IMG/VR virus record: IMGVR_UViG_3300042301_003932
Origin: a virus
Direction: 5' to 3' (one strand)
DNA: 64,000 bases
Shown here: positions 28,309 through 52,050 of the stretch, one piece after another
How the letters are laid out: each line of letters starts with the position of its first letter
How positions within the stretch are numbered: the first letter of the stretch is position 1
Notes under the pieces: generated by a model
The model's database searches: none
What the model was told of the DNA's origin: nothing
What the model saw: the letters and a program-made list of their open reading frames with translations, nothing else
Translations under genes and position numbers: made by a program

Positions 28309-28319
28309 TCTTTTTTATG

Positions 28320-28345
28320 ATAAATAGTTTAATCGCGGTATTTAT
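28320..28345. promoter_or_regulatory. Back-to-back divergent TATTTAT motifs
   Basis: ataaata at 28320-28326 serves the minus-strand gene; tatttat at 28339-28345 serves the plus-strand gene. Confidence 0.65.
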
Positions 28346-28358
28346 AGGTAAAGCCTAG

Positions 28359-30253: not shown

Positions 30254-30259
30254 TTAATT

Positions 30260-30895: not shown

Positions 30896-30912
30896 AATTA
30901 GTATCGTCGATT

Positions 30913-30940
30913 AAATCCACCTCTAAAGGGTGGATTTTTT
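30913..30940 (+). terminator. Rho-independent terminator
   Basis: aaatccacc-tctaaag-ggtggattt followed by a T run. Confidence 0.85.
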
Positions 30941-30979
30941 ATTTTATAATCTTTATATTTTACTTAAATAAATTTTTAT

Positions 30980-32191
30980 ATGAGTAAAATTAAAGTATTA
31001 GTACTCCCTTCAGATAGAACAGGTGTTGGGAAGTTTAGAAGTGTGGATCCACACGTTATGTTACAAAATAATCATTCAGAAGATTTTCACGTAGACATAG
31101 ATTACGAACCAAAAATAAATGATATTAATTATTGGAAACAATATAACATTGTTCATTTTCATAGAAGTATTGGTCAAGATTATAACCAAGCACCAATGTT
31201 AATACAGCGTTTAAATGATTTAGGTATTATTACAATTATGGATTTAGACGATTATTGGTTACCAACAAAAGAACATCCAGTTCATCAATTAGTTGTACAA
31301 AATAAGTTACATGAAAAAATAATGGCTAATTTGAAAGTCGCTAAGTATGTAACAACAACCACAACAATATTTGCAGATGAAATAAAAAAATTAAATAAGA
31401 ATGTTTTTGTTTTACCAAACGCAATTAACCCAAATGAACCTCAGTTCCAACAAGAAACTTTAAAATCAGATAAGTTACGTTTTGGTTGGTTAGGTGGGTC
31501 ATCACATTTACATGATTTAAAACTTTTAGATGGTACCATCAATAAATTAAAATCACACAAAGATCAATTTAGTATGTATCTATGTGGTTTTGATATTAGA
31601 GGGTCTGTGACTGAAATTAATAGAGAAACGGGAGAACAAAAACAAAGACCTATTAGACCTGAAGAGACTGTTTGGGCAAGATATGAAGAAATCTTTACAG
31701 ATAACTATAGAATGGTCGATCCTCAACACAAAGATTTTTTAATGAAGTTTAAAGAAGAAGATTATAATTCTGATGTTTTACCTTTTTATAATCGTGTATG
31801 GACAAAACCCGTTACAAGTTACGCATCCAATTATAGATGGTTTGATGTATCGTTAGCACCAATTAAAAACCATATATTTAATAGAGTAAAATCACAACTT
31901 AAAGTTATTGAAGCAGGTTTTTATAAGAAAGCGATTATTGCATCAAACGTTGGTCCATATACTATTGATTTAAAACATTCATTAAAAAATGGTGAATTTG
32001 TTGATGGAAACGCACTTTTAGTGGACGAAGTAAGAAACGGTGATTGGTCTAAATACATGAAAAAATTAATTGATAATCCTAATTGGGCTTATGATTTAGG
32101 TCAAAGATTATATGAAACTGTTAAAGACACATATGATTTAAATAAAGTAACAAAAGATAGAGCAGAATTATATAAAACATTAGTAAAATGA
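30980..32191 (+). CDS. GT-B fold glycosyltransferase (GT4-like)
   Basis: DLDDYW, VLPNAI, FGWLGGSSH, FNRVKSQLKVIEAG, IIASNVGPY. Confidence 0.85.
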   Translation: MSKIKVLVLPSDRTGVGKFRSVDPHVMLQNNHSEDFHVDIDYEPKINDINYWKQYNIVHFHRSIGQDYNQAPMLIQRLNDLGIITIMDLDDYWLPTKEHPVHQLVVQNKLHEKIMANLKVAKYVTTTTTIFADEIKKLNKNVFVLPNAINPNEPQFQQETLKSDKLRFGWLGGSSHLHDLKLLDGTINKLKSHKDQFSMYLCGFDIRGSVTEINRETGEQKQRPIRPEETVWARYEEIFTDNYRMVDPQHKDFLMKFKEEDYNSDVLPFYNRVWTKPVTSYASNYRWFDVSLAPIKNHIFNRVKSQLKVIEAGFYKKAIIASNVGPYTIDLKHSLKNGEFVDGNALLVDEVRNGDWSKYMKKLIDNPNWAYDLGQRLYETVKDTYDLNKVTKDRAELYKTLVK

Positions 32192-32916
32192 TAAACATAC
32201 CCATAACAAAAATATTATTTTTAGATATTGAGACTGTAGGACTTTGTAAAGATTGGTCATCATGTCAAGAAAGTAATCCCAAAATTGCCGAACAATTTGT
32301 AAAATATTTTGATTGGTTTTTAAAAAGATTTCCTGAAGACAATTATGAAACTGATGGTCTTGAGGAAGAACTTCAAAAAATGAATGACGTTTATTTTAAA
32401 CGATCAGCACTTGTTCCTGAATTTGCAAAGATAGTTTGTGTTTCTATGGCGTTTGTTATGGATAATGGCGATATTAAAAAACAAACATTTTCAGGTGACG
32501 ATGAAAAAGAGTTACTACTTCAAGTTAGAAATCTTCTTGATAGGTGTCATAATTTAGATTTTTATCTTTGTGGTCACAATCTTAAAAATTTTGACATACC
32601 CATGATGGCAAAACGTATGATCATTAATGGTATTAAACCATCTAAAATACTTCCTTCATATGATACTAAGCCGTGGGAAGTTAAAGCGATTGACACAAAA
32701 GAAATTTGGCAATATGGTGCATATTCTGCGATTGGGTCATTGGATTTAGTATGTGCCACTTTAGATATACCAACACCTAAAGATGGAGAAGTAAATGGTG
32801 GGATGGTTCATGAAGCTTATTGGAGCCATAATAGGTTACAAGAAATTGCGGAGTACTGCGAAAAAGATGTTAATGTATTAATTGATTTTATTAAAAAATT
32901 AAAAGAATTAAAATGA
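32188..32916 (+). CDS. Stand-alone DEDD 3'-5' exonuclease (PolB-exonuclease-related)
   Basis: FLDIET, GHNLKNFDIP, YCEKDV. Confidence 0.9.
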   Translation: MINIPITKILFLDIETVGLCKDWSSCQESNPKIAEQFVKYFDWFLKRFPEDNYETDGLEEELQKMNDVYFKRSALVPEFAKIVCVSMAFVMDNGDIKKQTFSGDDEKELLLQVRNLLDRCHNLDFYLCGHNLKNFDIPMMAKRMIINGIKPSKILPSYDTKPWEVKAIDTKEIWQYGAYSAIGSLDLVCATLDIPTPKDGEVNGGMVHEAYWSHNRLQEIAEYCEKDVNVLIDFIKKLKELK

Positions 32917-33512
32917 GTGAAAAGTTAAACAAAGTAATGGACAATATAAAAAAATTAAAGTCCGTACAAAATAAAGTTTCTGATTTTGGAATGCCAAACT
33001 CACAATTTGATATTAATGATATCGTTTCTAATATTGATGATTTAGATTCTATTTTGATGGATAAGTCTGCGGGTAAAATAAATTTAGAATATACAAATGA
33101 TTCAGATAATAAAGAACCCGAATACGCCTACGAATCAGACTCAGGGTTTGATTTAAGATCAACAGAAGAGTTGTGGGTACAGGGTCACGATAGAAAATTA
33201 ATACCAACAGGATTAAGATTTGACATTCCTGATGGTTATGAAATACAAGTAAGAAGTAAAAGTGGATTAGCGTTAAATCAAGGATTAATGGTTTTAAATT
33301 CACCAGGGACTGTTGATAGTGGGTATCAGGGTGAAATTAAAGTTATTATTTTTAATACCACAAAAGAAAGAATAAAAATTGAAAAGGGTCAAAAGGTGGC
33401 ACAAGCAGTACTTTGTCCTGTGGTTAATGGTAAATGGGTTAATTTAGTTAAAGTGGAAGAGATTGGTGAAAAAGATAGGAATAATCAAGGTTTTGGCTCA
33501 ACAGGTTTATGA
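32913..33512 (+). CDS. dut: Trimeric dUTPase with N-terminal extension
   Basis: SGFDL, RSKSGLA, GTVDSGYQGEI, AQ, RNNQGFGSTG. Confidence 0.95.
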   Translation: MSEKLNKVMDNIKKLKSVQNKVSDFGMPNSQFDINDIVSNIDDLDSILMDKSAGKINLEYTNDSDNKEPEYAYESDSGFDLRSTEELWVQGHDRKLIPTGLRFDIPDGYEIQVRSKSGLALNQGLMVLNSPGTVDSGYQGEIKVIIFNTTKERIKIEKGQKVAQAVLCPVVNGKWVNLVKVEEIGEKDRNNQGFGSTGL

Positions 33513-35146
33513 TTACAGTAGGGTTCTCAACTAGAAAAATTGATGATGGATTTGTAGAGATGTTACAAAAAACGTCAGGAGTGCCAAATATTCAAATTAT
33601 TCCTATTGAAAATAATGGTGAGTATTCTTTAACTGAAGTATACAATAAAATTTTATTGCAATCACATAATGACATTTTAGTATTATGTCACGATGATATA
33701 TATTTTGATTCAAAAAATTGGGGTCAAAAAATATTAAATCATTTCAAAAGAAAACCAGAATACGGAATTTTAGGTTTGGCAGGAACTACAATTATGCCAA
33801 AATCAGGAAGATGGTGGGAAGACTTTTCAAAAATGAAAGGTATTGTCAATCACGAACATGGAGGAAAAAAATGGGAATCAAGATATTCTGCAAGTTCAGG
33901 AAACCAAATAGACGATGTAGTTTTAGTTGATGGTCTTTTTATTGTGGTAAACAGAAAAAAAATAAAAGAAAAATTTAATGAAGAGATAAATGGATTTCAT
34001 TTTTATGATGTTGATTTTTCTTTTACAAATTTTATAAAAGACGTAAAAATTGGTGTTGTTTACGACATAAGAGTAACTCATAAATCTATTGGTCAAACAA
34101 ACGAACAATGGGAAAAAAATAGAGAAATATTTGCAGAAAAATATAAAGATGTTTTACCGGTAAAAGTTAAAAGGAATTTAACTATTAACTCACCATTAAA
34201 AGTATTGTTATCTTGTTTATTTTTTAAAAACTTTACGGGATCCGAAATGTATGTTTATGAATTAGCGAGAGGTTTAAAAAAATTAAATTGTGATGTTACC
34301 GTCTTATCTGATATTAATGGACCACTTTCAAAATTAGCTCAACAACAAGGTATTAAAGTAGTATCATTTAACGAAGCACCTGGTTATAAATTAGGGGACG
34401 GAAAATGGAGTTTACAAACACCACAAGGACCACAAGTATCTCAAACTAATATAATGTATAAAATTGGTGAGGTTCATTATGATATTATTCATACACAACA
34501 TTTACCAGTCACAAATCAAATGTGTCAGATGTACCCAAACACTGATAAAATTTGTACAATACATTCTGAAGTTATTGAACTTGAAAATCCTGTAATTAAT
34601 GAAAAAATAAAAAAATACATTTGTATCAGACCTGAAATTCAAGAACATATAACAACAAAATTTGGGGTTGATAAAAATAATACTGAAGTAATTTACAACC
34701 CAATAGATACAAATAGATTTAACAAAAAAAATACAAAAGATGATGGGTATGTTTTATTTGTGGGTACTTTAGATTACTTACGAGAAAACACAATAAAGGA
34801 TTTGGTTGAGTATTCAAAATCAATTAATAAAATGTTATGGATAGTAGGAGAAAATAAATCAAATTATTTAGAAGATATATTAAAAAATAGACATGTAAAA
34901 CATTTTGAAGCGACTAGTAAAGTAGAGACTTTTGTCAAAAATTGTTCTGAGACTGCGGGGATACTTTTAGGTAGAACAACAATTGAAGGTTGGCTATGTG
35001 GGAAATCAGGATGGATTTACAATGTAGATGAAAATGGTTATATTTTAAACAAAGAAAAACATAATGTACCTGAAGATTTTAATAGATTTGATAGTTTAGA
35101 AGTTGCAAAAAAAATAAAAGAAGAATATATAAAAATTTTAAATTAA
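33509..35146 (+). CDS. Two-domain glycosyltransferase (GT-A plus GT-B)
   Basis: N-terminal LCHDD, VDGLF and FHFYD; C-terminal GSEMYVYELA, IYNPID and GRTTIEG. Confidence 0.85.
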   Translation: MITVGFSTRKIDDGFVEMLQKTSGVPNIQIIPIENNGEYSLTEVYNKILLQSHNDILVLCHDDIYFDSKNWGQKILNHFKRKPEYGILGLAGTTIMPKSGRWWEDFSKMKGIVNHEHGGKKWESRYSASSGNQIDDVVLVDGLFIVVNRKKIKEKFNEEINGFHFYDVDFSFTNFIKDVKIGVVYDIRVTHKSIGQTNEQWEKNREIFAEKYKDVLPVKVKRNLTINSPLKVLLSCLFFKNFTGSEMYVYELARGLKKLNCDVTVLSDINGPLSKLAQQQGIKVVSFNEAPGYKLGDGKWSLQTPQGPQVSQTNIMYKIGEVHYDIIHTQHLPVTNQMCQMYPNTDKICTIHSEVIELENPVINEKIKKYICIRPEIQEHITTKFGVDKNNTEVIYNPIDTNRFNKKNTKDDGYVLFVGTLDYLRENTIKDLVEYSKSINKMLWIVGENKSNYLEDILKNRHVKHFEATSKVETFVKNCSETAGILLGRTTIEGWLCGKSGWIYNVDENGYILNKEKHNVPEDFNRFDSLEVAKKIKEEYIKILN

Positions 35147-35814
35147 TGAGGATATTAGTTAAGTTCCCAACAAGAGGAAGAAAAACAAAATTCTTATCTG
35201 TTTTAAAAAAATATTATGATTTGTGTGATGACAAAGAAAATATTCATTTTTTAATCTCATTGGATGAAGATGATACCGAAATGAATAATCAACACACTAA
35301 AGATGTTTTGAGTACATTTAAAAATTTAACTTGCGTTTTTGGTAAAAGTGTGTCTAAGATACATGCGGTTAATAGAGATATTAATGATTTAGAAGAAAAA
35401 TGGGATATTGTTATATTGGCTTCTGATGATATGGTCCCGCAAGTTTTAGGGTATGATCAAATAATAAGAAATAAAATGAACGAATTATATCCTGACACTG
35501 ATGGAGTATTGTGGTTTAATGACGGTTATCAAGGTAGTAGACTTAATACTTTATGTATTTTAGGGAAAAAATATTACGAAAGATTTAATTATATTTATCA
35601 TCCTGACTATAAGTCTTGTTTTTCGGATAATGAATTTATGGAGGTTGGTAATATATTAAAAAGGCAAACCTATATTGATCAAGTAATAATAAGACATGAA
35701 CATCCTGATTGGGGTTTTGGTTCTACTGATTTTGTACACAATAATAATATAAAAGATTGGCATCACGACAACTCAACATTTCAACTGAGAAAAACAAATA
35801 ATTTTTATATATGA
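35146..35814 (+). CDS. GT-A (GT2-like) glycosyltransferase
   Basis: PTRGR, ASDDM, SDNEF, IRHEH. Confidence 0.75.
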   Translation: MRILVKFPTRGRKTKFLSVLKKYYDLCDDKENIHFLISLDEDDTEMNNQHTKDVLSTFKNLTCVFGKSVSKIHAVNRDINDLEEKWDIVILASDDMVPQVLGYDQIIRNKMNELYPDTDGVLWFNDGYQGSRLNTLCILGKKYYERFNYIYHPDYKSCFSDNEFMEVGNILKRQTYIDQVIIRHEHPDWGFGSTDFVHNNNIKDWHHDNSTFQLRKTNNFYI

Positions 35815-36458
35815 AAAAAATAATATCGTTTTCACTATGGGGAGAAAATCCAGTTTATAATGTTGGGGCAATACGAAACGCCGAATTAGCAAAAGAAATT
35901 TATCCTGAATGGATTTGTCGTTTTTATTATGGTAGAACCACTTTATCTGAAACGTTAGAAAAATTAAAAAGTTTTGATAATGTTGAATTGATTGATATGG
36001 AAGTTGATGGTGATTGGACTGGCATGTTTTGGAGATTTTATCCTGCATCTGATAGTGATGTTGATGTTGTTATTGTTAGAGATTGTGATTCTAGATTAAA
36101 TATGAGAGAAAAATATGCAGTAGATGAGTGGTTATCTTCAGATAAAGGATTTCATATTATGAGGGATCATCCGGCTCATGGGACTGAAATATTAGGGGGT
36201 ATGTGGGGATCCAAAAAAAATGTCGTGTCAAATATGAAAAATATGATCAACGACTACATTAAAGGAAATTTTTGGCAAGTAGACCAAAATTTTTTAAGAG
36301 AAAAAGTTTATCCACTAATAAGACTTGATTGTTTAGTTCACGATGAGTATTTTGAACATAAGACGTTTCCAAAAACGAGAGAAAATAAATATTTTGTGGG
36401 TCAAGCATTTAATGAAAAAGATGAAATGTTATATCCCGAACATGTAAACCACTTATAA
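35811..36458 (+). CDS. Putative GT-A glycosyltransferase
   Basis: ISFSLWG, MFWRF, VRDCDSR (DxD), MRDHP.H, GGMWG, DQ.FL. Confidence 0.7.
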   Translation: MKKIISFSLWGENPVYNVGAIRNAELAKEIYPEWICRFYYGRTTLSETLEKLKSFDNVELIDMEVDGDWTGMFWRFYPASDSDVDVVIVRDCDSRLNMREKYAVDEWLSSDKGFHIMRDHPAHGTEILGGMWGSKKNVVSNMKNMINDYIKGNFWQVDQNFLREKVYPLIRLDCLVHDEYFEHKTFPKTRENKYFVGQAFNEKDEMLYPEHVNHL

Positions 36459-37525
36459 TGAATAAAATTAAAATTTGTTTTTATGCACACACAGTTGATT
36501 ACGCTGGTACATGGAGATCACATGAAAGAATAATATTAAATTTAGACAAAAATATATTTGACCCATACATAATTTACAGAGAAGAAGCAGATAATAATAG
36601 ATTACCTTTTATAATTAATAATTTTGACAATAATAAATTAATTAGTTTTAGTGCCAAAAACCATAAAACAGGTCCCGAACAAGGATATAGTTTTATTGAA
36701 ACAAATTTTTATGACGTATTGAAAAAATACAATTTTGATATTTTTCATTTTGCTAGAGGAGGTTATTATGAATGGCCGTTTGTAAAAAGATTTTGTCCAA
36801 TACAAGTTGAAACAAATATATTTGGTTTTAGAGATAATAGTGAGTTTTTAGATCGCTCAATTTCAATAAGTGAAACAATAAATAAAATGAGGGGAGGAAC
36901 CGATATAATGATTTACAATCCAATACCTGAAGAAAACCCAAATGCGAATGATTTAAAAAAATTTTATAATATACCCGAAGATTATTTTGTTTTTGGTAGA
37001 ATAGGTAGAAAAGATAATTTTCACCCAATCGCTTTAAATGCTTTAAAGTTATTAAAAAATAAAGGTGTAAATTTTAAATACATCATAATTGGTGCATGTA
37101 ATTTTACAATATCTAAAATAAATGAATTGGACTTAAATAATGAGTGTATTATAGTTGAAACAACAAACGATGACAATTACATTGATGATTTTCATAAAAC
37201 AATAGACGTTTTTTTACATTACCGAAGTGATGGTGAAACTTTTGGTACCGCAATTGCTCAATCAATGATGTATGGTAATCCTGTTGTTTCGCATTATGCG
37301 GGTTACAATGCACAATCTGAAATAATTTCAGATGGTGGTTATGTTAGTAATAACGAAATTGATTATTGTGATGAGATTTTTAAATTGATAAACGACAAAA
37401 ATTATTATGATTTTAGGTCTAATAATGCAAAAATAAGATCTAAGGACTTTGAAGAAAAAGTAATTTCTAAAAAAATGGAAAAAATATACATAAATTTATA
37501 TAATAATTCAAAAAATGATAATTAA
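36458..37525 (+). CDS. GT4-family glycosyltransferase
   Basis: FGRIGR and GETFGTAIAQSM.YG.PVV. Confidence 0.85.
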   Translation: MNKIKICFYAHTVDYAGTWRSHERIILNLDKNIFDPYIIYREEADNNRLPFIINNFDNNKLISFSAKNHKTGPEQGYSFIETNFYDVLKKYNFDIFHFARGGYYEWPFVKRFCPIQVETNIFGFRDNSEFLDRSISISETINKMRGGTDIMIYNPIPEENPNANDLKKFYNIPEDYFVFGRIGRKDNFHPIALNALKLLKNKGVNFKYIIIGACNFTISKINELDLNNECIIVETTNDDNYIDDFHKTIDVFLHYRSDGETFGTAIAQSMMYGNPVVSHYAGYNAQSEIISDGGYVSNNEIDYCDEIFKLINDKNYYDFRSNNAKIRSKDFEEKVISKKMEKIYINLYNNSKNDN

Positions 37526-38318
37526 TGAAAAAATTAAATCAAACCTTGTTTTAACCGAGTTTGATGATTTTAAAATCCATACAATACAAAACGACTGTAT
37601 GGGTAGAGATATAATAAATAAAAAAATATGGGAACCACATATAGTTAATTTTTTAAAATTAAATTTAAAAAAAGATTCTGTTTTTTTAGATGTTGGTAGT
37701 AATTATGGTTGGCACTCTATAATCGCATCCAAACTATGCCAAAAAGTTTTTAGTTTTGAACCTCAAACACTAATGTATGAAATACAAAAATTAAATATAG
37801 AAGAAAACAAAATAGAAAATTGTATTCTTTTTAAGGATGCGTTAGGGAACATTGAAGAAACAAAGGAAATGTCACCCATAGATTATAATATGAATGGGGT
37901 AAATATTGGTGATTTAAGTATTGGTCATGGGGGAGAATCAATAAATGTTAAAACTTTAGACTCTATGAATTTAGAGAAAGTTGACTTGATTAAAATTGAT
38001 GTTCAGGGATATGAAAAATTTATTTTAGAGGGGGGTATAGAAACAATAAAAAAACACAAACCAATAATGATTGTTGAATTTGAAGAGTTTCAATTAAACA
38101 AATTTGGATATGGTTCTAAAAATTTGTTTGACACAATTAGAAAATTAGATTATGAAATTTATTTTCTTGAGTATGTTTATCCTTCTGATCACGTTTGTGT
38201 ACATAAAGATTATGTTAAAGTATTTGAATCTTTAAATAATATATTACCTTTAGATTATAGTAATGGTTTAAATATGAATTTAGAAAATGGAGTAATAAAA
38301 AAGATAAAAACTACTTAA
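37515..38318 (+). CDS. FkbM-family methyltransferase
   Basis: LDVGSNYG, SFEP, IKIDVQGYE. Confidence 0.9.
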   Translation: MIINEKIKSNLVLTEFDDFKIHTIQNDCMGRDIINKKIWEPHIVNFLKLNLKKDSVFLDVGSNYGWHSIIASKLCQKVFSFEPQTLMYEIQKLNIEENKIENCILFKDALGNIEETKEMSPIDYNMNGVNIGDLSIGHGGESINVKTLDSMNLEKVDLIKIDVQGYEKFILEGGIETIKKHKPIMIVEFEEFQLNKFGYGSKNLFDTIRKLDYEIYFLEYVYPSDHVCVHKDYVKVFESLNNILPLDYSNGLNMNLENGVIKKIKTT

Positions 38319-38329
38319 CATTCAAAAAA

Positions 38330-38947
38330 ATGGATGCGGAAAAAATCTCAATATTAATAGCATGCTTCAATGGTGAAAAATTTATTGACAGGTGTATAAC
38401 AAGTATTTTTGAACAAACTTATAAAAACTTTATAATTATTTTTCTTAATGATGGTTCAAATGACAATACTAAAAACGTTATTGAAAAATACATTGGTGAG
38501 AAATTAATTTATTTTGAAAACAAAAATAATATGGGTAGGGGGTTCTCTAGAAATAAATTATTAAATCTATCAAATACTAAATATTCTTGTTGGTGCGATA
38601 TTGATGATTATATGCATCCACAAAAAATTGAAAAACAAATAAACCACATGATTGAAAATAAAATTACTTTTTTATCAACAGAAATGTTTGATATAGATAA
38701 TGAAGGAAATGTTGTTGGTGTAGGGTGTAATAAAAAGGACGATATTGAAGGACTAACTTTTGAAAAATTAAACCATGTTAATAAGATTAATCACCCAACG
38801 GTTATTTTCAAAACTGAAATTGCAAAAAAAATAGGATTTAACGAAAATTTAAAATTTAATGAGGATTGGGATTTTTATAAAAAACTTTACAGCTCAGGAC
38901 ATAGGGTTAATTGTTTACCAGAACCATTATATTATTATAAACTTTAA
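38330..38947 (+). CDS. GT2-family glycosyltransferase
   Basis: ISILIACFN, NDGSND, CDIDD, EDWDF. Confidence 0.9.
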   Translation: MDAEKISILIACFNGEKFIDRCITSIFEQTYKNFIIIFLNDGSNDNTKNVIEKYIGEKLIYFENKNNMGRGFSRNKLLNLSNTKYSCWCDIDDYMHPQKIEKQINHMIENKITFLSTEMFDIDNEGNVVGVGCNKKDDIEGLTFEKLNHVNKINHPTVIFKTEIAKKIGFNENLKFNEDWDFYKKLYSSGHRVNCLPEPLYYYKL

Positions 38948-38959
38948 TTTTAAAAAAAA

Positions 38960-39538
38960 ATGACAATTAACATACATAAAACAGGTTTTTGGGATTACAA
39001 TGATAGTGATCATGATGAGTCAATACATTTAGATTTGGGATTATCTAATTTTTTGGTGGAATTTTCAAAACAACAAAAAATTAATTGTATTATTGATTTT
39101 GGGTGTTCAACAGGATATTATTTAAGTTTTTTTGAAAGTGTTTTAAAAAAAACAGAGTTAATTGGAGTTGAGGGAAAAATAATGAGCTCAAAAAATTTAA
39201 AATTTAATAACATAATAGAACATGATTTAAGTAAAGAATTTAATTTAAATAAAAAAGGAGCAATAATGTGTTTAGAGGTTATAGAACACATACCTAAAGA
39301 ATATGAAAAAACTGTTCTTAATAATATAAAAAAACATTCTGAAAAATATGTTTTTATGAGTTGGGCACAACCTAATCAAGGGGGGTTGGGTCACGTAAAC
39401 GAGGTTGATGTAAACGAAGTAATAAAAAAATTTGAGTTCATGGGATTTAAATTTTTGTTAGATGAAACACAAAAAGCCAGAGAGTCAGCATCTTTGCCTT
39501 GGATAAAAAAAAATTTCTGTATTTTTGAAAAAATTTAA
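38960..39538 (+). CDS. Class I SAM-dependent methyltransferase
   Basis: IDFGCSTG, CLEVIEHI, QGG.GHVNE. Confidence 0.85.
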   Translation: MTINIHKTGFWDYNDSDHDESIHLDLGLSNFLVEFSKQQKINCIIDFGCSTGYYLSFFESVLKKTELIGVEGKIMSSKNLKFNNIIEHDLSKEFNLNKKGAIMCLEVIEHIPKEYEKTVLNNIKKHSEKYVFMSWAQPNQGGLGHVNEVDVNEVIKKFEFMGFKFLLDETQKARESASLPWIKKNFCIFEKI

Positions 39539-39553
39539 TATATACTATTTATT

Positions 39554-40252: not shown

Positions 40253-40263
40253 AAAAATTAAAT

Positions 40264-41121: not shown

Positions 41122-41736
41122 ATGTTATTAGACTTCAATCAAATATGTGATAAATATGGTTTAAACGTAAAAGGCGTAATACATATAGGAGGGCATCACG
41201 GGCAAGAAGATAAATTCTATTCCCAAAAAAATATTAAAAATGTAATTTATTTTGAACCATTAAAGAAAAATTTTGATGTGTTAAAAAACAACGTACCAAG
41301 TAATAGAATTATACACAATTTAGCGTTAGGTAATGAATGTAAATTAGTTGAAATGTATGTTGAAAATATTAATCAGGGGATGTCCTCATCAATTTTAAAA
41401 CCTAAATTACATATAGAACAATATCCACACATAGTTTTCAATGAAAAAGAAACGGTACAGATGGATAAATTAGATAATATACAATTTAATAGAGAAGACT
41501 ATAATTTAATCAATATTGACGTTCAAGGATATGAATTAGAAGTTTTTAAAGGCTCCGAAAAAACATTAAAAGAAATTGATTACATAATATCAGAAATAAA
41601 TAGAGAAATGTTATATGAAGATTGTACATTAATTACTGACTTAAAAAATTATTTACATAAATTCGGTTTTGAGTTAGTTGAGGAAAATTGGGCCGGTTCT
41701 TCTTGGGGTGATGGTCTTTTTATAAAAGTAAAATAA
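41122..41736 (+). CDS. FkbM-family methyltransferase
   Basis: IHIGGHHG, FEP, NIDVQGYELEV, WGD.LF. Confidence 0.88.
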   Translation: MLLDFNQICDKYGLNVKGVIHIGGHHGQEDKFYSQKNIKNVIYFEPLKKNFDVLKNNVPSNRIIHNLALGNECKLVEMYVENINQGMSSSILKPKLHIEQYPHIVFNEKETVQMDKLDNIQFNREDYNLINIDVQGYELEVFKGSEKTLKEIDYIISEINREMLYEDCTLITDLKNYLHKFGFELVEENWAGSSWGDGLFIKVK

Positions 41737-41742
41737 AAAAAT

Positions 41743-42291
41743 ATGCCAACATTATTAAAAAAAGATTTGGATTCTATCTTAGAAAAAACAAATGAAAGTT
41801 TAAATGATTACCCTAATTTTGTTGAGACGGGAACATTTATGGGTGAAACTATTTTACGATTTGTAGATTATTTTGAAAATCTTTTTACAATTGAGTTAAG
41901 TGAAGTTTTATATAATGAGTTTAATCGTATTGAGTATGATAGAACTAAACTTAAAAGTTTTTTGGGTGACAGCTCCGTTGTTTTACCAAATGTGATAAAT
42001 GAATTAAGAAATAATACAATATTTTTTCTAGACGGTCATTATTCTTCTGGTAGTACCGCAAGGGGAACTAAAGATGTTCCATTATATGAAGAACTTAAAA
42101 ATATTAATGATTTATATTTTTTTGGTGGTTTAATAATAATTGACGATTTAAGGTTATTTGGAACAAAACTAAATGAGGATTGGAGTTATGTTAATACAGA
42201 CTCTTTATTGTCTACTTTGGGAAATAGAATAGAAACTTTTTTTGAGGAAAACGACAGATTAATTATAAAAATAAAAAAAATCAATTTATGA
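41743..42291 (+). CDS. SAM-dependent methyltransferase-like protein
   Basis: FVETGT, TIELS, GDS, FFLDGH, IIIDD. Confidence 0.75.
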   Translation: MPTLLKKDLDSILEKTNESLNDYPNFVETGTFMGETILRFVDYFENLFTIELSEVLYNEFNRIEYDRTKLKSFLGDSSVVLPNVINELRNNTIFFLDGHYSSGSTARGTKDVPLYEELKNINDLYFFGGLIIIDDLRLFGTKLNEDWSYVNTDSLLSTLGNRIETFFEENDRLIIKIKKINL

Positions 42292-42917
42292 AAGATTATT
42301 CACAACACGGAGAAAGCATAATATTAAAAGAAATTATAGAAAAAATAGGGGAAGAAAATAAATTTTGTGTTGAGTTTGGTGCCTCTGATGGTTATTGGTT
42401 ATCTAATGTTAGAATGTTTTTAGATGATGGGTGGAGTGGTTTACAAATGGATGGGGGATCAAAGGCCGGAGTAAATGGAGTATATAAAGAATTCATTACT
42501 AAAGATAATATAAACACTTTATTTGATAAATACTCTGTCCCAAACACTTTTGATATTTTAAGTATTGATATTGATGGTAATGATTATTGGGTATGGAATG
42601 AAATAAATAGAGACCCTAATATTGTAATAATTGAATACAATTCAAATTTTGATATTGATACTTCGGTTTCTTTATCATACGATGAATCTCATTCTTTTGA
42701 TGGAACATATGCGTATAGCGCATCCTTTAAGGCTCTTTGCTCGTTAGCAGAAAAAAAAGGTTATTATCTTTATTGTGAAGTTGCATATTGTAATTTAATT
42801 TTTGTAAATAAAAAGTTTATAGATAAAGCACCATCTATTTTTGATAAAAAGTTAATTAATCTACCAAAACATCAACACGAAATAAAATTGAAAAATAAAA
42901 AATTTGTAATAGTTTAA
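42288..42917 (+). CDS. FkbM-like methyltransferase
   Basis: YSQHGE, VEFGASDG, LSIDIDGNDYWVW. Confidence 0.75.
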   Translation: MKDYSQHGESIILKEIIEKIGEENKFCVEFGASDGYWLSNVRMFLDDGWSGLQMDGGSKAGVNGVYKEFITKDNINTLFDKYSVPNTFDILSIDIDGNDYWVWNEINRDPNIVIIEYNSNFDIDTSVSLSYDESHSFDGTYAYSASFKALCSLAEKKGYYLYCEVAYCNLIFVNKKFIDKAPSIFDKKLINLPKHQHEIKLKNKKFVIV

Positions 42918-42918
42918 T

Positions 42919-43695
42919 ATGGTAGTTGTTAAATTACAAGGTGGATTAGGTAACCAACTTTTTCAATGGGCACTTGCCAAATCATTGTCAATAAAATTTA
43001 ATGTTGAAACATATATTGATATTATCGGGTACGATAATCAAGTTAACATTACCAAAAGAGGATTTTCTTTAAATAAGTTACCCAACATAAGTTATAATTT
43101 ATTTAATAATACAAATAATGGGTTCACAACTATTTATGATGATTTTATTTTTAAAGAATTTAATATAGAAAAAGATAATAATTATTTTTTTGATGGATAT
43201 TGGCAAAGTGAAAAATACTTTATTAAGTATTCTAATATTATTAAAAATGAACTTTCACCAAATCAAAATATAAAAAAAGATTTACACAAAATAATACCTG
43301 AAAAAAATAATTCAGTTTCTTTACATGTCAGAAGAACCGATTATGTAACATCAAACGGATACCACCCACTACAAGATATAAATTATTATAACTCAGCAAT
43401 AGAACATATCGGTGAATACGATAATTTATATATTTTTTCAGATGATATTGTATGGTGTAAAGAAAATTTACATTATAAAAATATGACCTTTGTTGAAGGT
43501 AATGATAGTATTACAGATATTTGGTTACAATCTATTTGCAAAAATAATATAATCGCAAATTCGTCTTTTAGTTGGTGGGGTTCTTGGCTAAATAATAATG
43601 TAGATAAAAAAGTAATATCCCCACTAAAATGGTTTGGTGATCACGTCGCATTAAACACATCAGATATTATACCTAAAAATTATATAAAAATTTAA
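42919..43695 (+). CDS. GT11 alpha-1,2-fucosyltransferase
   Basis: GGLGNQLFQ, GYWQSEKYF, HVRRTDY, FSDD, NSSFSWW. Confidence 0.92.
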   Translation: MVVVKLQGGLGNQLFQWALAKSLSIKFNVETYIDIIGYDNQVNITKRGFSLNKLPNISYNLFNNTNNGFTTIYDDFIFKEFNIEKDNNYFFDGYWQSEKYFIKYSNIIKNELSPNQNIKKDLHKIIPEKNNSVSLHVRRTDYVTSNGYHPLQDINYYNSAIEHIGEYDNLYIFSDDIVWCKENLHYKNMTFVEGNDSITDIWLQSICKNNIIANSSFSWWGSWLNNNVDKKVISPLKWFGDHVALNTSDIIPKNYIKI

Positions 43696-43699
43696 TATT

Positions 43700-44680
43700 A
43701 TGAAAAAAAAGTCACTAATAACTGGAATTAACGGACAAGATGGTTCTTATTTAGCCGAATTTTTAGTTGACAAAGGGTATGAAGTTTGGGGTACAGTAAA
43801 AAGAAATTCAGTGTCTGAAACACAATCATCCAGAATAAACCATTTAAGAGACGAAAATAAAATAAATTTAGAATACGCCGATTTAACAGATATGGCATCT
43901 TTAATACGTGTTTTACAAAAAGTACAACCTGATGAGGTATATAATTTAGCGGCACAATCTCACGTTAGAATTTCTTTTGATCAACCAATATATACAGCAA
44001 ATGCAACTGGTTTAGGTACCTTAAATTTATTAGAAGCAGTAAGAATGGTGTCCCCACACTCTAAAATTTATCAAGCGTCTTCTTCAGAAATGTTTGGTAA
44101 TTCAATTGACGAAGATGGATACCAAAGAGAAACTACACCAATGAATCCCGTATCTCCTTATGGATGTGCGAAAGTTTTTTCATACAATATTTGTAGAAAT
44201 TATAGAAACTCATATGGAATGAAAATATGGAATGGTATTCTATTTAACCATGAATCACCAAGACGAGGTACTAACTTTGTAACCAATAAAGTTGTAAAGG
44301 CAGCAGTAAGAATTAGTTTAGGTTTACAGGATAAATTACATATTGGTAATTTATCAGCAACTAGGGATTGGGGTCATGCCAAGGATTACGTTGAAGCAAT
44401 GTGGTTGATGCTACAATCAGATAAACCTGACGACTATGTTTGCTCAACGGGGGTGTCACATTCAGTTAAAGATTTGTGTGAATATACCTTTAGTTCATTA
44501 GGTTTAAATTATTTAGATTATATTGTTGTTGATGAAAAACATTTTAGACCTGAAGAATTAGAAAATTTAAAGGGAGATTCTTCAAAAATAAGAAAAGAAT
44601 TATTATGGCAACCTTCTTATACTTTTGAAACGATGATAGATGAAATGATAGAACATTGGTTAAATTATTATGGAAAATAA
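43700..44680 (+). CDS. gmd: GDP-mannose 4,6-dehydratase
   Basis: ITGINGQDGSYLAE, NLAAQSHV, QASSSE, SPYGCAK, FNHESPRRG, RDWGHA. Confidence 0.96.
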   Translation: MKKKSLITGINGQDGSYLAEFLVDKGYEVWGTVKRNSVSETQSSRINHLRDENKINLEYADLTDMASLIRVLQKVQPDEVYNLAAQSHVRISFDQPIYTANATGLGTLNLLEAVRMVSPHSKIYQASSSEMFGNSIDEDGYQRETTPMNPVSPYGCAKVFSYNICRNYRNSYGMKIWNGILFNHESPRRGTNFVTNKVVKAAVRISLGLQDKLHIGNLSATRDWGHAKDYVEAMWLMLQSDKPDDYVCSTGVSHSVKDLCEYTFSSLGLNYLDYIVVDEKHFRPEELENLKGDSSKIRKELLWQPSYTFETMIDEMIEHWLNYYGK

Positions 44681-45584
44681 AATATTGGTAACCGGTGGTT
44701 ACGGTTTAGTAGGAACTGAATTCGCACAAAAAAAATACGTCAAGCCGACATCAATTGATGTTGATTTTAGAAACGCAAGTCAAGTTAATGATTTTTTTAG
44801 TAATAATAATTTTGATGGAGTTATTCATTGTGCGGCTAAAGTTGGTGGGGTTGGTAGTAATATGAATTTTAAGGGAGAGTTTTTTTACGATAACATAATG
44901 ATGAACACAAATATCATTGAATCAGCCAGGCGTTTTGGTGTTAAAAAATTAGTTGCGTTTTTATCCACTTGTGTTTTCCCAAATCATGTAAATTATCCAT
45001 TAACAGAATCAAAAATACATTTGGGACCTCCTCATTTTTCAAATGATGCATATGCGTATGCTAAAAGGATGGTTGACGTACAAATAAGGTCCTATAGAGA
45101 ACAATATGGACTTAATTATACGTCAGTAATACCTACAAACATTTATGGTCCTAACGACAATTACAACATAGAAAATGGTCATGTAATACCATCATTAATT
45201 CACAAGTGTTATTTGGCAAGAGAAAATAAAACAGATTTTACAATATGGGGTACCGGCACACCATTAAGAGAGTTTATTTTTAGTAAAGATGTTGCAAAAT
45301 TAACAGAATGGGTTTTAGAAAACTATGAAGAAAATGAACCAATAATACTTTCAACATCTGACGAGATCTCAATAAAAGAAATTGTTGATGTAATAACTGA
45401 ATTAATGAATTATAAGGGTAATGTAGTTTGGGATAATACTAAACCTGATGGTCAATATAGGAAACCTAGTGATAACTCAAAAATAAAAAAATATTTACCT
45501 GATTTTAAATTTACCCCTCTTTATGACGGAATAAAAGAAACTATTGAATATTTTGAAAACAATTATAATATTATAAGAAAATAA
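44670..45584 (+). CDS. fcl: GDP-L-fucose synthase
   Basis: AAKVGG, STCVFP, YAYAK, PTNIYGP.DN, HVIP, WGTG.P.REF, KPDG. Confidence 0.95.
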   Translation: MENKILVTGGYGLVGTEFAQKKYVKPTSIDVDFRNASQVNDFFSNNNFDGVIHCAAKVGGVGSNMNFKGEFFYDNIMMNTNIIESARRFGVKKLVAFLSTCVFPNHVNYPLTESKIHLGPPHFSNDAYAYAKRMVDVQIRSYREQYGLNYTSVIPTNIYGPNDNYNIENGHVIPSLIHKCYLARENKTDFTIWGTGTPLREFIFSKDVAKLTEWVLENYEENEPIILSTSDEISIKEIVDVITELMNYKGNVVWDNTKPDGQYRKPSDNSKIKKYLPDFKFTPLYDGIKETIEYFENNYNIIRK

Positions 45585-45585
45585 T

Positions 45586-46320
45586 ATGACAAGAAAAAAA
45601 CCACAACCCCAAACTGAAGATCACGAATCAAAACCCTTCTCAAAAAAAGACTTTATAAATTCAATAGTAAAGAAAAAACAAAAAAATAAGTTTTTAACTG
45701 AAAGTCAAGAACATTATTATAACCTCCTAAGAAACAACCAAATCACAATTTGTTCGGGACCTGCGGGTGTTGGTAAATCGTACATCGCAATGAAAGCGGC
45801 GGTTGATTTATTAATGGACCCATCAAACGCATATGAAAAATTGGTTATTGTTAGACCGGCAGTAGAAGCAGAAGAAAAATTAGGATCACTCCCTGGTAAC
45901 TTAGAAGAAAAATTAGACCCTTACATTTTCCCATCTTATTACTTATTAAATAAAATTATCGGTAAAGAGGCAAGAGAAAAATTAAAAGATGCTGAAATTA
46001 TTGAAGTATTCGCTTTAGCATACATGAGAGGTATGAATATAGATAATACAATTTTAATATTTGAAGAAGCACAAAACTCAAGTCCAAATCAAATGAAATT
46101 ACTATTGACAAGGATAGGGTTTAATAGTAAATTCTTTATATCAGGAGATATTGAACAAACTGACCGTTATAGAGACAAAAAACAATCAGGCCTGTATGAC
46201 GCAATTAAAAAGTTTAATGATGTTCACGATATTGGTGTTTTTGAATTTGGTGATGGGGATGTTGTTAGAAACCCTCTTATAAGTAAGTTATTAAAAAAAT
46301 ATGAAGAGAATAGGGATTGA
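45586..46320 (+). CDS. phoH: PhoH-family ATPase
   Basis: GPAGVGKS, RPAVEA, LPG, AYMRG, EEAQN, SGD..Q.D, VVRNP. Confidence 0.93.
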   Translation: MTRKKPQPQTEDHESKPFSKKDFINSIVKKKQKNKFLTESQEHYYNLLRNNQITICSGPAGVGKSYIAMKAAVDLLMDPSNAYEKLVIVRPAVEAEEKLGSLPGNLEEKLDPYIFPSYYLLNKIIGKEAREKLKDAEIIEVFALAYMRGMNIDNTILIFEEAQNSSPNQMKLLLTRIGFNSKFFISGDIEQTDRYRDKKQSGLYDAIKKFNDVHDIGVFEFGDGDVVRNPLISKLLKKYEENRD

Positions 46321-46945
46321 AATTAACGGAGTGTTAAGAGACACTATAGGTAAATTTACACAGTTATATGAAAAACATATGATTGAAGAAAAAGAAGAGG
46401 GATCAAAAACCTATGAAATTGATTTGTCGGGTAATACTGAAGAGTTAGTTTCAAAAGAAGAGTTTGAATATAAAATTTTAAGTGATGTCACATCATTAAA
46501 TTTAATGGATCATTTTAGATTTAATGACGAAAACGATTTGTATTCTTTCATGTATGAAGATTTTGCAATGCAGATATTTGGACATGCGGGTTCTACTGAA
46601 ACATTCACATTTAATGACTTGAATGAAATTTATTTAAAATTTAGAGATAAAAATGAATTGTTAATTGTTTCCGACGAAATGGGAAAATCAAAACCGGCCT
46701 CCCTATTTTTCCTTTCTAAGTTTGGATGTCAATTAGAAAAAATAAAATTTTACTCAAATGTTACAATAAATTCAATGTGGGATGAAATTGACATTTTACT
46801 TACATCCAATCCTAACTTAATATTAAATAAACCAAAAGATAAAATCGTAGTTAAATATAACACGAACTATAATAAAAATGTCAATTGTGAATATGAAATA
46901 GTTTCATTGAAAGAATTTGACGAAGTTTTAAAAAAAATAATATAA
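46301..46945 (+). CDS. 5'(3')-nucleotidase-like HAD-fold protein with degenerate motif I
   Basis: RIGIEINGVLRD in place of the canonical DxDGVL; C-terminal YN motif. Confidence 0.55.
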   Translation: MKRIGIEINGVLRDTIGKFTQLYEKHMIEEKEEGSKTYEIDLSGNTEELVSKEEFEYKILSDVTSLNLMDHFRFNDENDLYSFMYEDFAMQIFGHAGSTETFTFNDLNEIYLKFRDKNELLIVSDEMGKSKPASLFFLSKFGCQLEKIKFYSNVTINSMWDEIDILLTSNPNLILNKPKDKIVVKYNTNYNKNVNCEYEIVSLKEFDEVLKKII

Positions 46946-47235
46946 TGTTAGAATTTTTAGGAGAAAATTATTATTTGGACATAAATGAATTAGAGAAACA
47001 AGTTAGTTACGAAAATTCAATGTTGCCATTAACAACATCGGCAGTAACAGAAAACCCCGAACAACAAATAAGTGTGACTAGATATGAAACATTTAAAAGT
47101 TTAATTGAGGTTATACTTACTGAACGTGAAGAATTAGATGAGGATTTGGGTATACATGGTGCAAAAAATTTGACTATACCATTTAAAATATCATTCAATA
47201 CACTATTAATAAACAAAATACTAAAAAAACTTTAA
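46945..47235 (+). CDS. Hypothetical protein
   Basis: Coupled ORF within the operon. Confidence 0.6.
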   Translation: MLEFLGENYYLDINELEKQVSYENSMLPLTTSAVTENPEQQISVTRYETFKSLIEVILTEREELDEDLGIHGAKNLTIPFKISFNTLLINKILKKL

Positions 47236-47236
47236 A

Positions 47237-48304
47237 ATGGAATTAGAAAAAATTGAAAAAATTGAAAAGTCTGTTGAAAATCTAAAAAATAAAAATGTAA
47301 GAATTTATTTTTTAGTACAAGACACTAAAGGTAACCCTAAAGCATCTGTAAAATACATTTACGATACTGCCTTAATTTTAAAAAACAATGGGTATAACAG
47401 CATCATTATTCATGAGTCTAACGATTATAAGGGTGTTAGCGAATGGTTAGATGATAGATACAAAGAAATACCACACCAGTCAATTGAGGGTCAGAATTTA
47501 GCAATTTCTCCTGAAGATTTTATTGTTATTCCTGAAATTTATGGTCATGTAATGGATCAATTAAAAAATTTCCCTTGTGGTAAAATCGTCCTTTGTCAGT
47601 CATATGATTATATGTTAGAAACATTATCACCTGGTATTTCATGGGCACAATATGGGTTTTTAAAAGTTATAACAACTTCTGAAAAACAAAAAAAATATTT
47701 ATCTGAAATTATGAGAGGATGTAGTTTTGATATTATAACTCCAAAAATATCCTCAGTTTTCACAAAAAAAGAAAAACCATCAAAACCATTAATTTCAATC
47801 CACACTAGAGAACCAAGAGACACGGCAAAGATTATTAAAACGTTTTATCTTAAATACCCACAATATAGATGGATTACTTTTAGAGATATGAGAGGTATTA
47901 AATTGGAAGATTTTTCAAAATTTTTACAAGAATCATTTGTTTCTGTTTGGGTAGATTTAGAATCTGGATTTGGTACATTTCCTTTGGAATCAATGGCTTG
48001 TGGAACACCAGTTATTGGTAAAGTACCTTCATTAAAACCTGAATGGATGGACGAAAATAATGGAGTATGGACTTACGAATTCAATGAGATTGTTGATATA
48101 ATTGCAAACTTTACTCAAAATTGGTTGGAAGATAATATTTCTGAATCATTATATGATAACATGAAAACAACATCTGACATATATTCAACCGACAGTTCGT
48201 ATGAAAATGACGTTTTATCAACATTTGATGGATATATTGAAAAAAGAAAATTGTCTTTAGAAGAACAATTAGAAAAAATAAAAGAAACAACAACACAAAA
48301 TTAA
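47237..48304 (+). CDS. GT-B (GT4-like) glycosyltransferase
   Basis: DFIVIPE, GFGTFPLESMACGTPVIG. Confidence 0.8.
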   Translation: MELEKIEKIEKSVENLKNKNVRIYFLVQDTKGNPKASVKYIYDTALILKNNGYNSIIIHESNDYKGVSEWLDDRYKEIPHQSIEGQNLAISPEDFIVIPEIYGHVMDQLKNFPCGKIVLCQSYDYMLETLSPGISWAQYGFLKVITTSEKQKKYLSEIMRGCSFDIITPKISSVFTKKEKPSKPLISIHTREPRDTAKIIKTFYLKYPQYRWITFRDMRGIKLEDFSKFLQESFVSVWVDLESGFGTFPLESMACGTPVIGKVPSLKPEWMDENNGVWTYEFNEIVDIIANFTQNWLEDNISESLYDNMKTTSDIYSTDSSYENDVLSTFDGYIEKRKLSLEEQLEKIKETTTQN

Positions 48305-48308
48305 AATT

Positions 48309-49121
48309 ATGGAAGAAAAAAATATATTTGATGTTTCAGTGGTATTACCTTTGGACTCAGCAAAACACTTAGACTTTGATGAACTTTTTGGAAGAGCGAT
48401 TAAATCTCTACATAATCAAACAACATCAATTAATGAATTAGTGATTGTTCACACTAATGAAGAATCTTTAAAAATAAAATTAAACTCTTTTGATTTTAGT
48501 GGGTTAACCGTAAATATGGTTGAAAATACAGGATCTAAAGATTTTGCAACACAAGTTAACTTGGGGGTTAAAAATTCTAAAAGTAATTGGGTTTCAATAT
48601 TAGAATTTGATGACGAATACTCTTCTATATGGTTTAAAAATGTTGATAGATTTTCTAAATCATATGATGATGTTGATGCATTTTTACCTTTAGTTGTGGA
48701 TACTGATGATAAAGGGGTGTTTGCTGGATTTACAAATGAAGCATCTTTTGCTGTTAGTTTAAATAGTGAAATTGGTATTCTAACTAATGAGGTTCTTTTA
48801 AATTATCAAAATTTTCAATCAAGTGGTATGGTAATTAAAAAATCAGTTTTTGAAAATAACGGGGGTTTTAAACCATCATTTAAACTTACTTTTGTATATG
48901 AGTACCTTTTGAGATTAACATATAACTCAGTTAAATTAATGACTATACCTAGAATAGGGTACAAACACACCAATTTACGACAAGGATCTATTTTTTGGAA
49001 TTATAAATTTGGTGAAGAAAAAATTTCAGATAATGAGGTTACTTTTTGGTTGGAATCAGCAAAAAAAGAACATTTTTTTACGGCTGACAGAGAAATAAAA
49101 TACGAGCCTCAAAATGTTTAA
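48309..49121 (+). CDS. GT2-like glycosyltransferase
   Basis: VSVVLP, QVNLGV, ILEFDD, GGFK. Confidence 0.75.
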   Translation: MEEKNIFDVSVVLPLDSAKHLDFDELFGRAIKSLHNQTTSINELVIVHTNEESLKIKLNSFDFSGLTVNMVENTGSKDFATQVNLGVKNSKSNWVSILEFDDEYSSIWFKNVDRFSKSYDDVDAFLPLVVDTDDKGVFAGFTNEASFAVSLNSEIGILTNEVLLNYQNFQSSGMVIKKSVFENNGGFKPSFKLTFVYEYLLRLTYNSVKLMTIPRIGYKHTNLRQGSIFWNYKFGEEKISDNEVTFWLESAKKEHFFTADREIKYEPQNV

Positions 49122-49864: not shown

Positions 49865-49888
49865 TTCGGATAGTGATATTTATATATT

Positions 49889-50257: not shown

Positions 50258-50260
50258 TTT

Positions 50261-52048: not shown

Positions 52049-52050
52049 TT

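Follow-up and report, generated by a model that had tools for sequence, protein, structure and literature searches.

What does a bacteriophage do with a long run of sugar-handling genes, and which molecule would receive the product? We addressed this question in a 64,000-nucleotide (nt) stretch of viral DNA, IMG/VR record IMGVR_UViG_3300042301_003932 (hereafter the window), in which a glycan gene island occupies positions 30980-49864. We found that the island is a conserved frame around a cassette that is exchanged wholesale between related phages, via recombination in the flanks. Clusters rich in glycosyltransferases (GTs) have already been published for cyanophages and moraphages; what is new is the fixed frame with its swappable cassette. 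As to function, we give an even chance to lipid-free assembly of a strain-variable, fucosylated and methylated glycan on phage-made, that is virion, proteins.

A fixed frame around an exchanged cassette

The original prediction, made from the letters of the window, described a single co-oriented and tightly coupled gene run with 11 GT genes and 5 methyltransferase-like genes. This description was borne out. The run consists of 24 open reading frames (ORFs) on the + strand, whose neighbours overlap or are separated by gaps of at most 15 nt. Ten of the GT genes are supported and one (35811) is a lead, and the methyltransferase-like genes comprise two strong FkbM members, two weak matches and one recognized by its fold. 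Six GT genes (33509, 36458, 38330, 39554, 40264 and 42919) passed the Pfam cut-off. Besides these, the run carries genes for an exonuclease, a dUTPase, PhoH, an NT5C-like protein and a 96-amino-acid (aa) protein, none of which the prediction mentions.

Protein-guided scans of IMG/VR gave two sets of related loci, 45 around the sigma-like gene at the end of the run and 80 (of 205) around GT2d, a two-domain transferase. The left block of the frame (the transferase GTa, the exonuclease, the dUTPase and GT2d) was found in 72-80 of the 80 loci, and the right block (gmd, fcl, PhoH, the genes at 46301 and 46945, the transferases GT1r and GT2r, and the sigma-like gene) in 31-44 of the 45. The genes of 35146-42917 were found in few loci only. 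In the nearest relative, IMGVR_UViG_3300042564_003823, DNA identity by blastn was 86% across 25638-35160 and 92.7% across 43694-58595; the part between them, 35161-43693, gave no alignment except two patches of ~70% in an FkbM gene and a GT11 gene. Against this relative, the borders of the exchange run from the GT2d stop codon to the gmd start codon, and they enclose a cassette of 12 genes (35147..43699, +). Its G+C content of 25.8% is the lowest of the region, compared with 29-31% in the flanks.

The turnover of this cassette is extensive. Clustering placed the 825 cassette ORFs of the 80 loci in 226 protein clusters. The 77 loci that hold at least six cassette genes show 36 cassette types. 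Where pairs of loci have GT2d 90-99.5% identical, the cassettes mostly differ. When 148 cluster representatives were searched with Pfam, only sugar chemistry emerged, namely FkbM and other methyltransferases, short-chain dehydrogenase/reductase (SDR) dehydratases and epimerases, GT2, DegT aminotransferases, GT10, GT11, GT1 and hexapeptide acyltransferases. The predicted layout, conserved flanking transferases around a variable core, thus stood. Its limits did not, because gmd and fcl are part of the conserved right flank in near relatives, so that the core ends before gmd and spans 35147-43699 instead of 35146-45584. In the literature, we did not find the combination of a lineage-wide fixed frame, O-antigen-like cassette exchange and a lack of membrane parts.

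A predicted GDP-fucose route

As predicted, gmd and fcl lie beside the GT11 gene, directly on its 3' side. Gmd (GDP-mannose 4,6-dehydratase; 43700..44680, +), the right anchor of the cassette in near relatives, matches PF16363 over its full length (E 5e-124) and TIGR01472 at E 1e-122 with 409.7 bits, the equivalog cut-off being 415. The gene was present in 33 of the 45 sigma-gene loci at 81% identity. For Fcl (GDP-L-fucose synthase; 44670..45584, +) the best model by far was NF047922, which covers residues 2-298 of 304 (E 1.2e-72, under the equivalog cut-off); PF01370 matched at E 4e-50. The GT11 protein (alpha-1,2-fucosyltransferase family; 42919..43695, +; PF01531, E 7e-26) is encoded by the last cassette gene; a GT11 occurs in 53 of the 80 loci at ~37% identity, and homologues exist in ~100 phage records, mostly of cyanomyoviruses. 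Together, these three proteins make up a predicted GDP-L-fucose route with a transferase that would use its product, and from the family of the latter we infer fucose as the donor sugar. The term self-contained overstated the case, since the host has to supply GDP-mannose as well as every UDP-sugar.

Membrane, lipid-carrier and export genes

A 19-residue stretch with a Kyte-Doolittle mean of at least 1.6 served as the test for a membrane span. By this test no span was detected in any island glycan protein, and two or more hydrophobic spans were found in 0 of the 825 cassette ORFs of the 80 related loci. In the island, there was no Pfam match to an initiating phosphoglycosyl transferase. We then turned to five related genomes of 229-321 kb, three of which are 96-100% complete. 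PF02397 (WbaP/PglC type) and PF00953 (WecA type) were absent from all five, as were PF01943 (Wzx) and PF04932 (Wzy/WaaL), no ABC-2 exporter profile having been run; the same profiles were positive in 9-13 of 14 control bacteria. The statement that the run encodes no multi-pass membrane protein and no lipid-carrier or export gene therefore held for the island, and for the latter genes it extends to the 825 cassette ORFs and the five genomes. GT2-family matches in these genomes fell mostly within the island, with one additional copy elsewhere in each of two. A tyrosine integrase was not found in the related genomes, and classical lysogenic seroconversion, which this makes unlikely, was rejected.

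Timing of expression

Expression just before morphogenesis had been proposed because the run ends at a gene read as a late sigma factor. This proposal fared poorly. The sigma-70-like protein (49121..49864, +), encoded by the last gene of the run, matched PF04542 at E 0.002 (18 bits) and TIGR02937 at E 4e-5 (23 bits), both sub-threshold, and had no match in PHROG or PDB. Capsid, sheath and fibre genes, and likewise 28359, 49889 and 54158, are preceded at a distance of 12-52 nt by the sequence TATTTAT(A), for example at 63203(-), 4117(-), 21015(-), 28339(+), 49877(+), 6637(+), 8414(+) and 9517(+). Of the copies of TATTTATA, 9 out of 18 are within 60 nt of a start, and the gene that follows the sigma-like gene has TATTTATA 12 nt upstream, at 49877. 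We regard TATTTAT(A) as a candidate late-promoter motif, unlike the TATAAATA of T4. It is absent before the island genes, where a start codon lies just 8 nt from the lone copy (39546), and this suggests that the island is expressed early or in the middle of infection. Chlorovirus GTs are also early, so timing does not separate the possible acceptors. Scans for the Bacteroidota-type promoter TTTG-N17-21-TAnnTTTG and for sigma-70 promoters both remained at chance level.

Candidate acceptors of the glycan

We propose that Gmd and Fcl would turn host GDP-mannose into GDP-L-fucose, and that in the cytoplasm the conserved transferases would build the inner part of a glycan on an acceptor that is soluble and made by the phage, most likely on virion surface proteins such as fibres and capsid. 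The cassette enzymes would then add a strain-specific outer part, fucosylated and O-methylated, and the turnover of the cassette would reflect diversifying selection on an exposed surface. It is conceivable, if somewhat doubtful, that virions across this abundant lineage of aquatic jumbo phages come in 'serotypes', their glycan being assembled independently of lipid, with a conserved inner part and an outer part whose cassette recombines between strains much as bacterial O-antigen loci do.

A soluble acceptor is favoured, on indirect evidence, by the lack of membrane genes in many independently acquired cassettes. It is also favoured by GT1r (47237..48304, +), a conserved GT-B glycosyltransferase that is weak in Pfam and present in 44 of the 45 loci. 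When the family profile of GT1r was compared with the PDB, 8xsg matched across residues 90-335 at E 3.2e-12, and the next GT4 matches had E values of at least 0.02. The entries 8XSG and 8XSH are AmGGT of Actinobacillus, and Agt lengthens glucose chains on adhesins inside the cytoplasm and needs no lipid carrier; the AmGGT/Agt enzymes are soluble, and their substrates are N-glucosylated adhesins or free oligosaccharides (PMC12159676). Judged by its profile, GT1r is specifically nearest AmGGT/Agt among GT4 enzymes, although the homology is distant. Two features of the window are indirect hints in the same direction: a soluble sulfotransferase (PF13469/PF00685; 21052-21870, -) is encoded among the fibre genes, and the Ser+Thr content of the virion proteins is 15-29%, compared with ~8-15% for island proteins and 11-13% for helicase and polymerase.

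Several observations weigh against virion proteins as the acceptor. By hydropathy, GTs whose substrates are undecaprenyl-linked intermediates count as soluble too, and the absence of spans alone is thus not decisive. The whole-genome absences come from the relatives and do not refer to the genome to which the window belongs. The late motif is missing before the island genes, and the island is set among early-type nucleotide-metabolism genes, not beside structural genes as in mycobacteriophages. We recognized no protein-initiating transferase, GT41/NGT (PF13844, HMW1C-like) was absent from the five relatives, and the 294-aa ORF beside the sulfotransferase gene (21867-22751) had no Pfam match at E 0.01. 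Finally, AmGGT works on free oligosaccharides, not on glycopeptides (PMC12159676).

The enzymes might instead remodel the host envelope during lytic infection, which we consider rather unlikely. The phage GTs would act on host undecaprenyl-linked intermediates at the inner membrane face, and host flippases, ABC transporters and ligases would export an altered O-antigen, capsule or O-glycan; superinfection would be blocked, or progeny would be kept from sticking to debris. Such a role is the customary reading of the clusters of cyanophages and has been assumed for cyanomyoviruses (PMC12801897), in ~100 records of which GT11/GT25 homologues occur. It agrees with the fact that GT2, GT4, GT11, GT25, FkbM and Gmd/Fcl also build bacterial O-antigens, with the turnover and low G+C of the cassette, which are like those of O-antigen loci, and with the nearest relative, whose divergence also includes the fibre region, upstream of 25638. 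Peripheral GTs require no membrane span, and an early or middle genome position would allow time for export. However, cassettes derived from hosts should carry membrane genes at least occasionally, and no initiating transferase, flippase, polymerase or multi-pass protein was present in the 36 cassette types or the five genomes. Host Wzx/Wzy and ligases are moreover selective for their own units, which counts against remodelling, as do the lack of an integrase in the relatives and the kinship of the conserved GT1r to a cytoplasmic, lipid-independent chain extender.

Two further explanations appear much less probable than these. The product might not be attached to a virion protein at all: it could, for example, be a free cytoplasmic oligo- or polysaccharide with many methyl groups, a small molecule that carries sugars, or a protein that the phage secretes, such as that of 58612-61191. 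The methylmannose polysaccharide of mycobacteria is an example of a free cytoplasmic polymethylated polysaccharide, and the fold neighbours of GTa include the methylmannose-polysaccharide mannosyltransferase as well as GTs for small molecules, such as MshA and BshA. AmGGT uses free oligosaccharides, the cassette holds many O-methyltransferases, and the window encodes a protein with domains associated with the type IX secretion system (T9SS). Nevertheless, we find this very improbable: it is difficult to see why near-identical phages would replace whole cassettes if the product were an internal metabolite, the benefit to the phage is not evident, and GT4 fold neighbours say little about acceptors. 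About as improbable is glycan hypermodification of phage DNA, where an oligosaccharide on a hydroxylated pyrimidine would shield against restriction and modification-dependent nucleases would drive the turnover. Sugars, from mono- to trisaccharides and also polyarabinose, can indeed be present on phage DNA, where GTs like those for lipopolysaccharide (LPS) act together with phage-encoded sugar-nucleotide genes, and the published glycans are built on 5-hydroxymethylcytosine, 5-hydroxycytosine or 5-hydroxymethyluracil, with ThyA-family variants or methyltransferase and TET pairs (bioRxiv 10.1101/2023.12.21.572611; PMC13326640). The island is interleaved with the exonuclease, dUTPase, PhoH and NT5C-like genes, and GTa homologues adjoin a helicase and a polymerase in Justusliebigvirus. 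But eleven transferases and five O-methyltransferases are far above known DNA glycans, and the one ThyA homologue of the relatives has canonical L143, C146, D169 and N177, residues that, by the key of PMC13326640, set it apart from dCMP hydroxymethylases and from 5-hydroxy-dCMP synthases. The relatives had no C5 cytosine methyltransferase (PF00145) and no TET/JBP match (PF12851), the control for the latter being uninformative. DNA, which the original prediction had offered as an alternative acceptor, is therefore disfavoured. As a separate observation, the thymidylate synthases of three relatives are 364-431 aa long and have an extra insertion of ~40 residues after the Lactobacillus-type insert, with canonical catalytic residues.

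Comparison with known systems

Among the closest published loci are clusters of the cyanomyoviruses P-SSM2, S-SCSM1, S-SCSM2R and S-SM2, labelled 'LPS' or 'cell wall synthesis and modification' and assumed to act at the host surface (PMC12801897). Like the island, these clusters belong to large aquatic T4-like phages and combine at least 10 soluble GTs (GT2, GT1/4, GT10, GT11, GT25) with SDR enzymes for nucleotide-diphosphate sugars (PMC12801897). The cyanomyovirus GT11 homologues are 33-35% identical and adjoin GT25 in S-SM2. Unlike them, the island has a fixed frame and a swap that are seen in the DNA, and its GT2d and GT1r had no match in cultured phages by tblastn. Its host is probably a member of the Bacteroidota, whereas the hosts of cyanomyoviruses are cyanobacteria. 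GTa is an exception among the frame genes, with distant homologues in the cultured Justusliebigvirus and Phapecoctavirus, where a tandem of four GT genes adjoins the replication genes. In Escherichia phage VEcB (NC_052663.1, 3778-6954), four tandem genes annotated as GTs, gp194-197, lie beside a helicase and DNA polymerase I, and two of them are distant homologues of GTa (30980). Our literature search yielded no published role for this tandem set of Justusliebigvirus/VEcB.

For a glycan built on virion proteins, one precedent is chlorovirus PBCV-1, which glycosylates its capsid protein autonomously in the cytoplasm, using soluble early GTs, GMD and GMER for GDP-L-fucose, and methylated sugars (PMC5408694). 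Its glycans have a common core and a strain-variable decoration, like the glycan that we propose (PMC5408694). The analogy with chloroviruses drawn in the original prediction consequently holds on paper (PMC5408694), with the difference that PBCV-1 is a eukaryotic giant virus with scattered GT genes and a proven capsid glycan, whereas such a glycan is a proposal here. According to Freeman et al. 2023 (PMC10527164, cited in PMC12619734), mycobacteriophage GTs, with an O-methyltransferase in some clusters, add glycans in the cytoplasm to subunits of the capsid and tail tube; the genes involved, as described there, number two to four and lie by structural genes in siphoviruses of ~60 kb. The island, in contrast, belongs to a jumbo myovirus, comprises ~18 glycan genes in a region of early type, and exchanges its cassette. 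Bacterial O-antigen and capsule loci (Wzx/Wzy- or ABC-dependent) share with the island their enzyme families, low G+C and a variable block between conserved flanks, but the island is without an initiating phosphoglycosyl transferase, flippase, polymerase, ligase or multi-pass protein, both at the locus and in the related genomes. The Actinobacillus NGT/Agt system, finally, has a lipid-free extender that the GT1r profile matches distantly, whereas its NGT/GT41 partner is the one missing from the five relatives.

If the glycan is on the virion, a very common lineage of aquatic tailed phages would wear a variable sugar coat, and phage adsorption, decay, grazing and immune-like recognition would need rethinking. 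Were the 'serotypes' real, host lectin-type defences, grazers or competing phages would read and select the surface sugars of phages. With the glycan on the virion, the Agt-like extender, GT11, and the FkbM and other O-methyltransferases would also provide soluble, lipid-free enzymes of glycan assembly for cytoplasmic glyco-engineering. If the glycan is instead on the host envelope, the locus would give the first evidence for the role of the 'LPS clusters' of large aquatic phages, a long-standing puzzle. With either acceptor, a fixed frame with swappable cassettes offers a clean comparative system.

Genes of the cassette and the frame

The cassette contains seven transferase and five methyltransferase-like genes, all on the + strand. 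The first (35146..35814) encodes a putative glycosyltransferase with SDD and DEDD motifs that matched PHROG 14945 ('glycosyltransferase', E 1e-20) only and had no Pfam match. The second (35811..36458) is a lead for a probable GT-A (GT8-like) transferase, with a DCD motif, no Pfam match and ESM Atlas leads to viral 'hexosyltransferase' clusters (0.99) and to GT8/Nucleotid_trans (0.92). They are followed by a GT-B glycosyltransferase of group 1 (GT1; 36458..37525; PF00534, E 2e-12), an FkbM-family methyltransferase (37515..38318; PF05050, E 2.6e-15; TIGR01444, E 6e-25) and a GT2 glycosyltransferase (38330..38947; PF00535, E 6e-27). The protein of 38960..39538 is weakly similar to S-adenosylmethionine (SAM) methyltransferases (PF13489, E 1e-4; TIGR03587 Pse-associated methylase, E 1e-6; both under cut-off). 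Next come a GT25 glycosyltransferase (39554..40252; PF01755, E 6e-20), a CgeB-like GT-B glycosyltransferase (40264..41121; PF13524, E 4e-28) and another FkbM-family methyltransferase (41122..41736; PF05050, E 3.5e-18; TIGR01444, E 8e-20).

The AlphaFold2 (AF2) model of the protein encoded at 41743..42291 (predicted local distance difference test score (pLDDT) 91.4) has a class I SAM-dependent O-methyltransferase fold, and Foldseek matched it to CCoAOMT/COMT-type O-methyltransferases at E ~1e-6; none of the 680 homologues of its family has a Pfam match. The gene before GT11 (42288..42917) encodes a weak FkbM-like methyltransferase (PF05050, E 4.7e-4, 20.8 bits compared with a cut-off of 22.7). 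Pfam searches at E up to 10 gave no useful match for the proteins of 35146, 35811, 41743, 46301 and 46945.

In front of the frame, a terminator (30913..30937, +), consisting of a stem-loop with a 10-bp stem and a T-run in a T-rich tail, ends the preceding five-gene operon, and the island begins 43 nt on. The first frame gene encodes GTa (30980..32191, +), a GT-B (GT4-like) glycosyltransferase found in 72 of the 80 loci with a median identity of 67%. It matched PHROG 7162 (E 2e-44) and had no match in Pfam, nor in sequence and profile searches of the PDB; its fold came from an AF2 model (pLDDT 86.8), for which the top Foldseek matches were GlgM, PglA, MshA and BshA. An hhalign comparison of the GT1r and GTa families showed them to be unrelated beyond the fold. 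Next to GTa are two non-glycan genes, for a PolB-type 3'-5' exonuclease (32188..32916, +; PF10108, E 2.5e-13; 76 of 80 loci) and a dUTPase (32913..33512, +; PF00692, E 1.7e-25, residues 69-198; 79 of 80 loci). The dUTPase has an N-terminal extension of ~68 residues with no family match. GT2d (33509..35146, +), the left anchor of the cassette, joins a GT-A domain (PF13712, E 6e-30) to a GT-B domain (PF13439, the GT4 N-domain, E 8e-14); it had no PDB match by sequence and occurs in 205 IMG/VR loci and more than 3100 metagenome protein clusters.

On the right, fcl is followed by a non-glycan PhoH-like ATPase gene (45586..46320, +; PF02562, E 5e-63; 40 of 45 loci) and by a gene for a 214-aa protein (46301..46945, +; 42 of 45 loci), for which ESM Atlas gave an NT5C lead (0.95). 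At the NT5C/HAD-like N-terminus of this protein, the catalytic D-x-D is replaced by E-x-N (consensus MKRIGIEINGVLRD); perhaps the protein is a deoxyribonucleotidase that has lost its activity or taken on another use. The conserved 96-aa protein (46945..47235, +; 43 of 45 loci) has no family match. GT2r (48309..49121, +), which follows GT1r, is a conserved GT-A glycosyltransferase that is weak in Pfam and present in 44 of the 45 loci; its family profile matched 6p61 (E 1.3e-5) and SunS (E 0.03) in the PDB, and TIGR01556 rhamnosyltransferase matched at E 3e-6, under the cut-off.

The source phage and its lineage

Among the products encoded by the window are a major capsid protein of T4 type (Pfam Gp23), a tail sheath and fibre-like virion proteins, together with a helicase and a DNA polymerase. 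The closest capsid relatives, 41-46% identical, are from uncultured huge phages, Microcystis phage Mel-JY01, Flavobacterium 'immuto' phages and Rhodothermus RM378. No match to the island came up when 50,697 phage records were searched with Megablast. Adjoining the capsid gene, 58612-61191 (-) encodes an 859-aa protein with fn3, GBD_T9SS_assoc, GEVED and F5/8-type-C domains and 26% Ser+Thr, which looks like a phage-encoded version of Bacteroidota T9SS-type surface cargo. A Bacteroidota host fits these T9SS-associated domains, the G+C of 30% and the absence of a Shine-Dalgarno sequence before the start codons of the window. The source is an uncultured jumbo-class T4-like myovirus, probably with Bacteroidota hosts.

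The 'moraphages', jumbo aquatic phages of 200-307 kb with predicted Bacteroidota hosts and mostly from freshwater (Perez-Hernandez et al. 2025, PMC12619734), are probably the same or an overlapping lineage, matched by description and not by sequence. They likewise have T4-type core genes including PhoH and a Rhodothermus phage as neighbour of the major capsid protein, and four of their core orthogroups are putative glycosyltransferases, in line with the four frame GTs found here (PMC12619734). Their description names GTs without locus structure, and fucose and methyltransferases appear nowhere in its text (PMC12619734). Related IMG/VR contigs reach 229-321 kb, with terminal repeats in one. One relative, IMGVR_UViG_3300042691_055965 (229 kb), is classed as a provirus by IMG/VR, yet a tyrosine integrase was not found in it; this class may have been set off by its host-like sugar genes.

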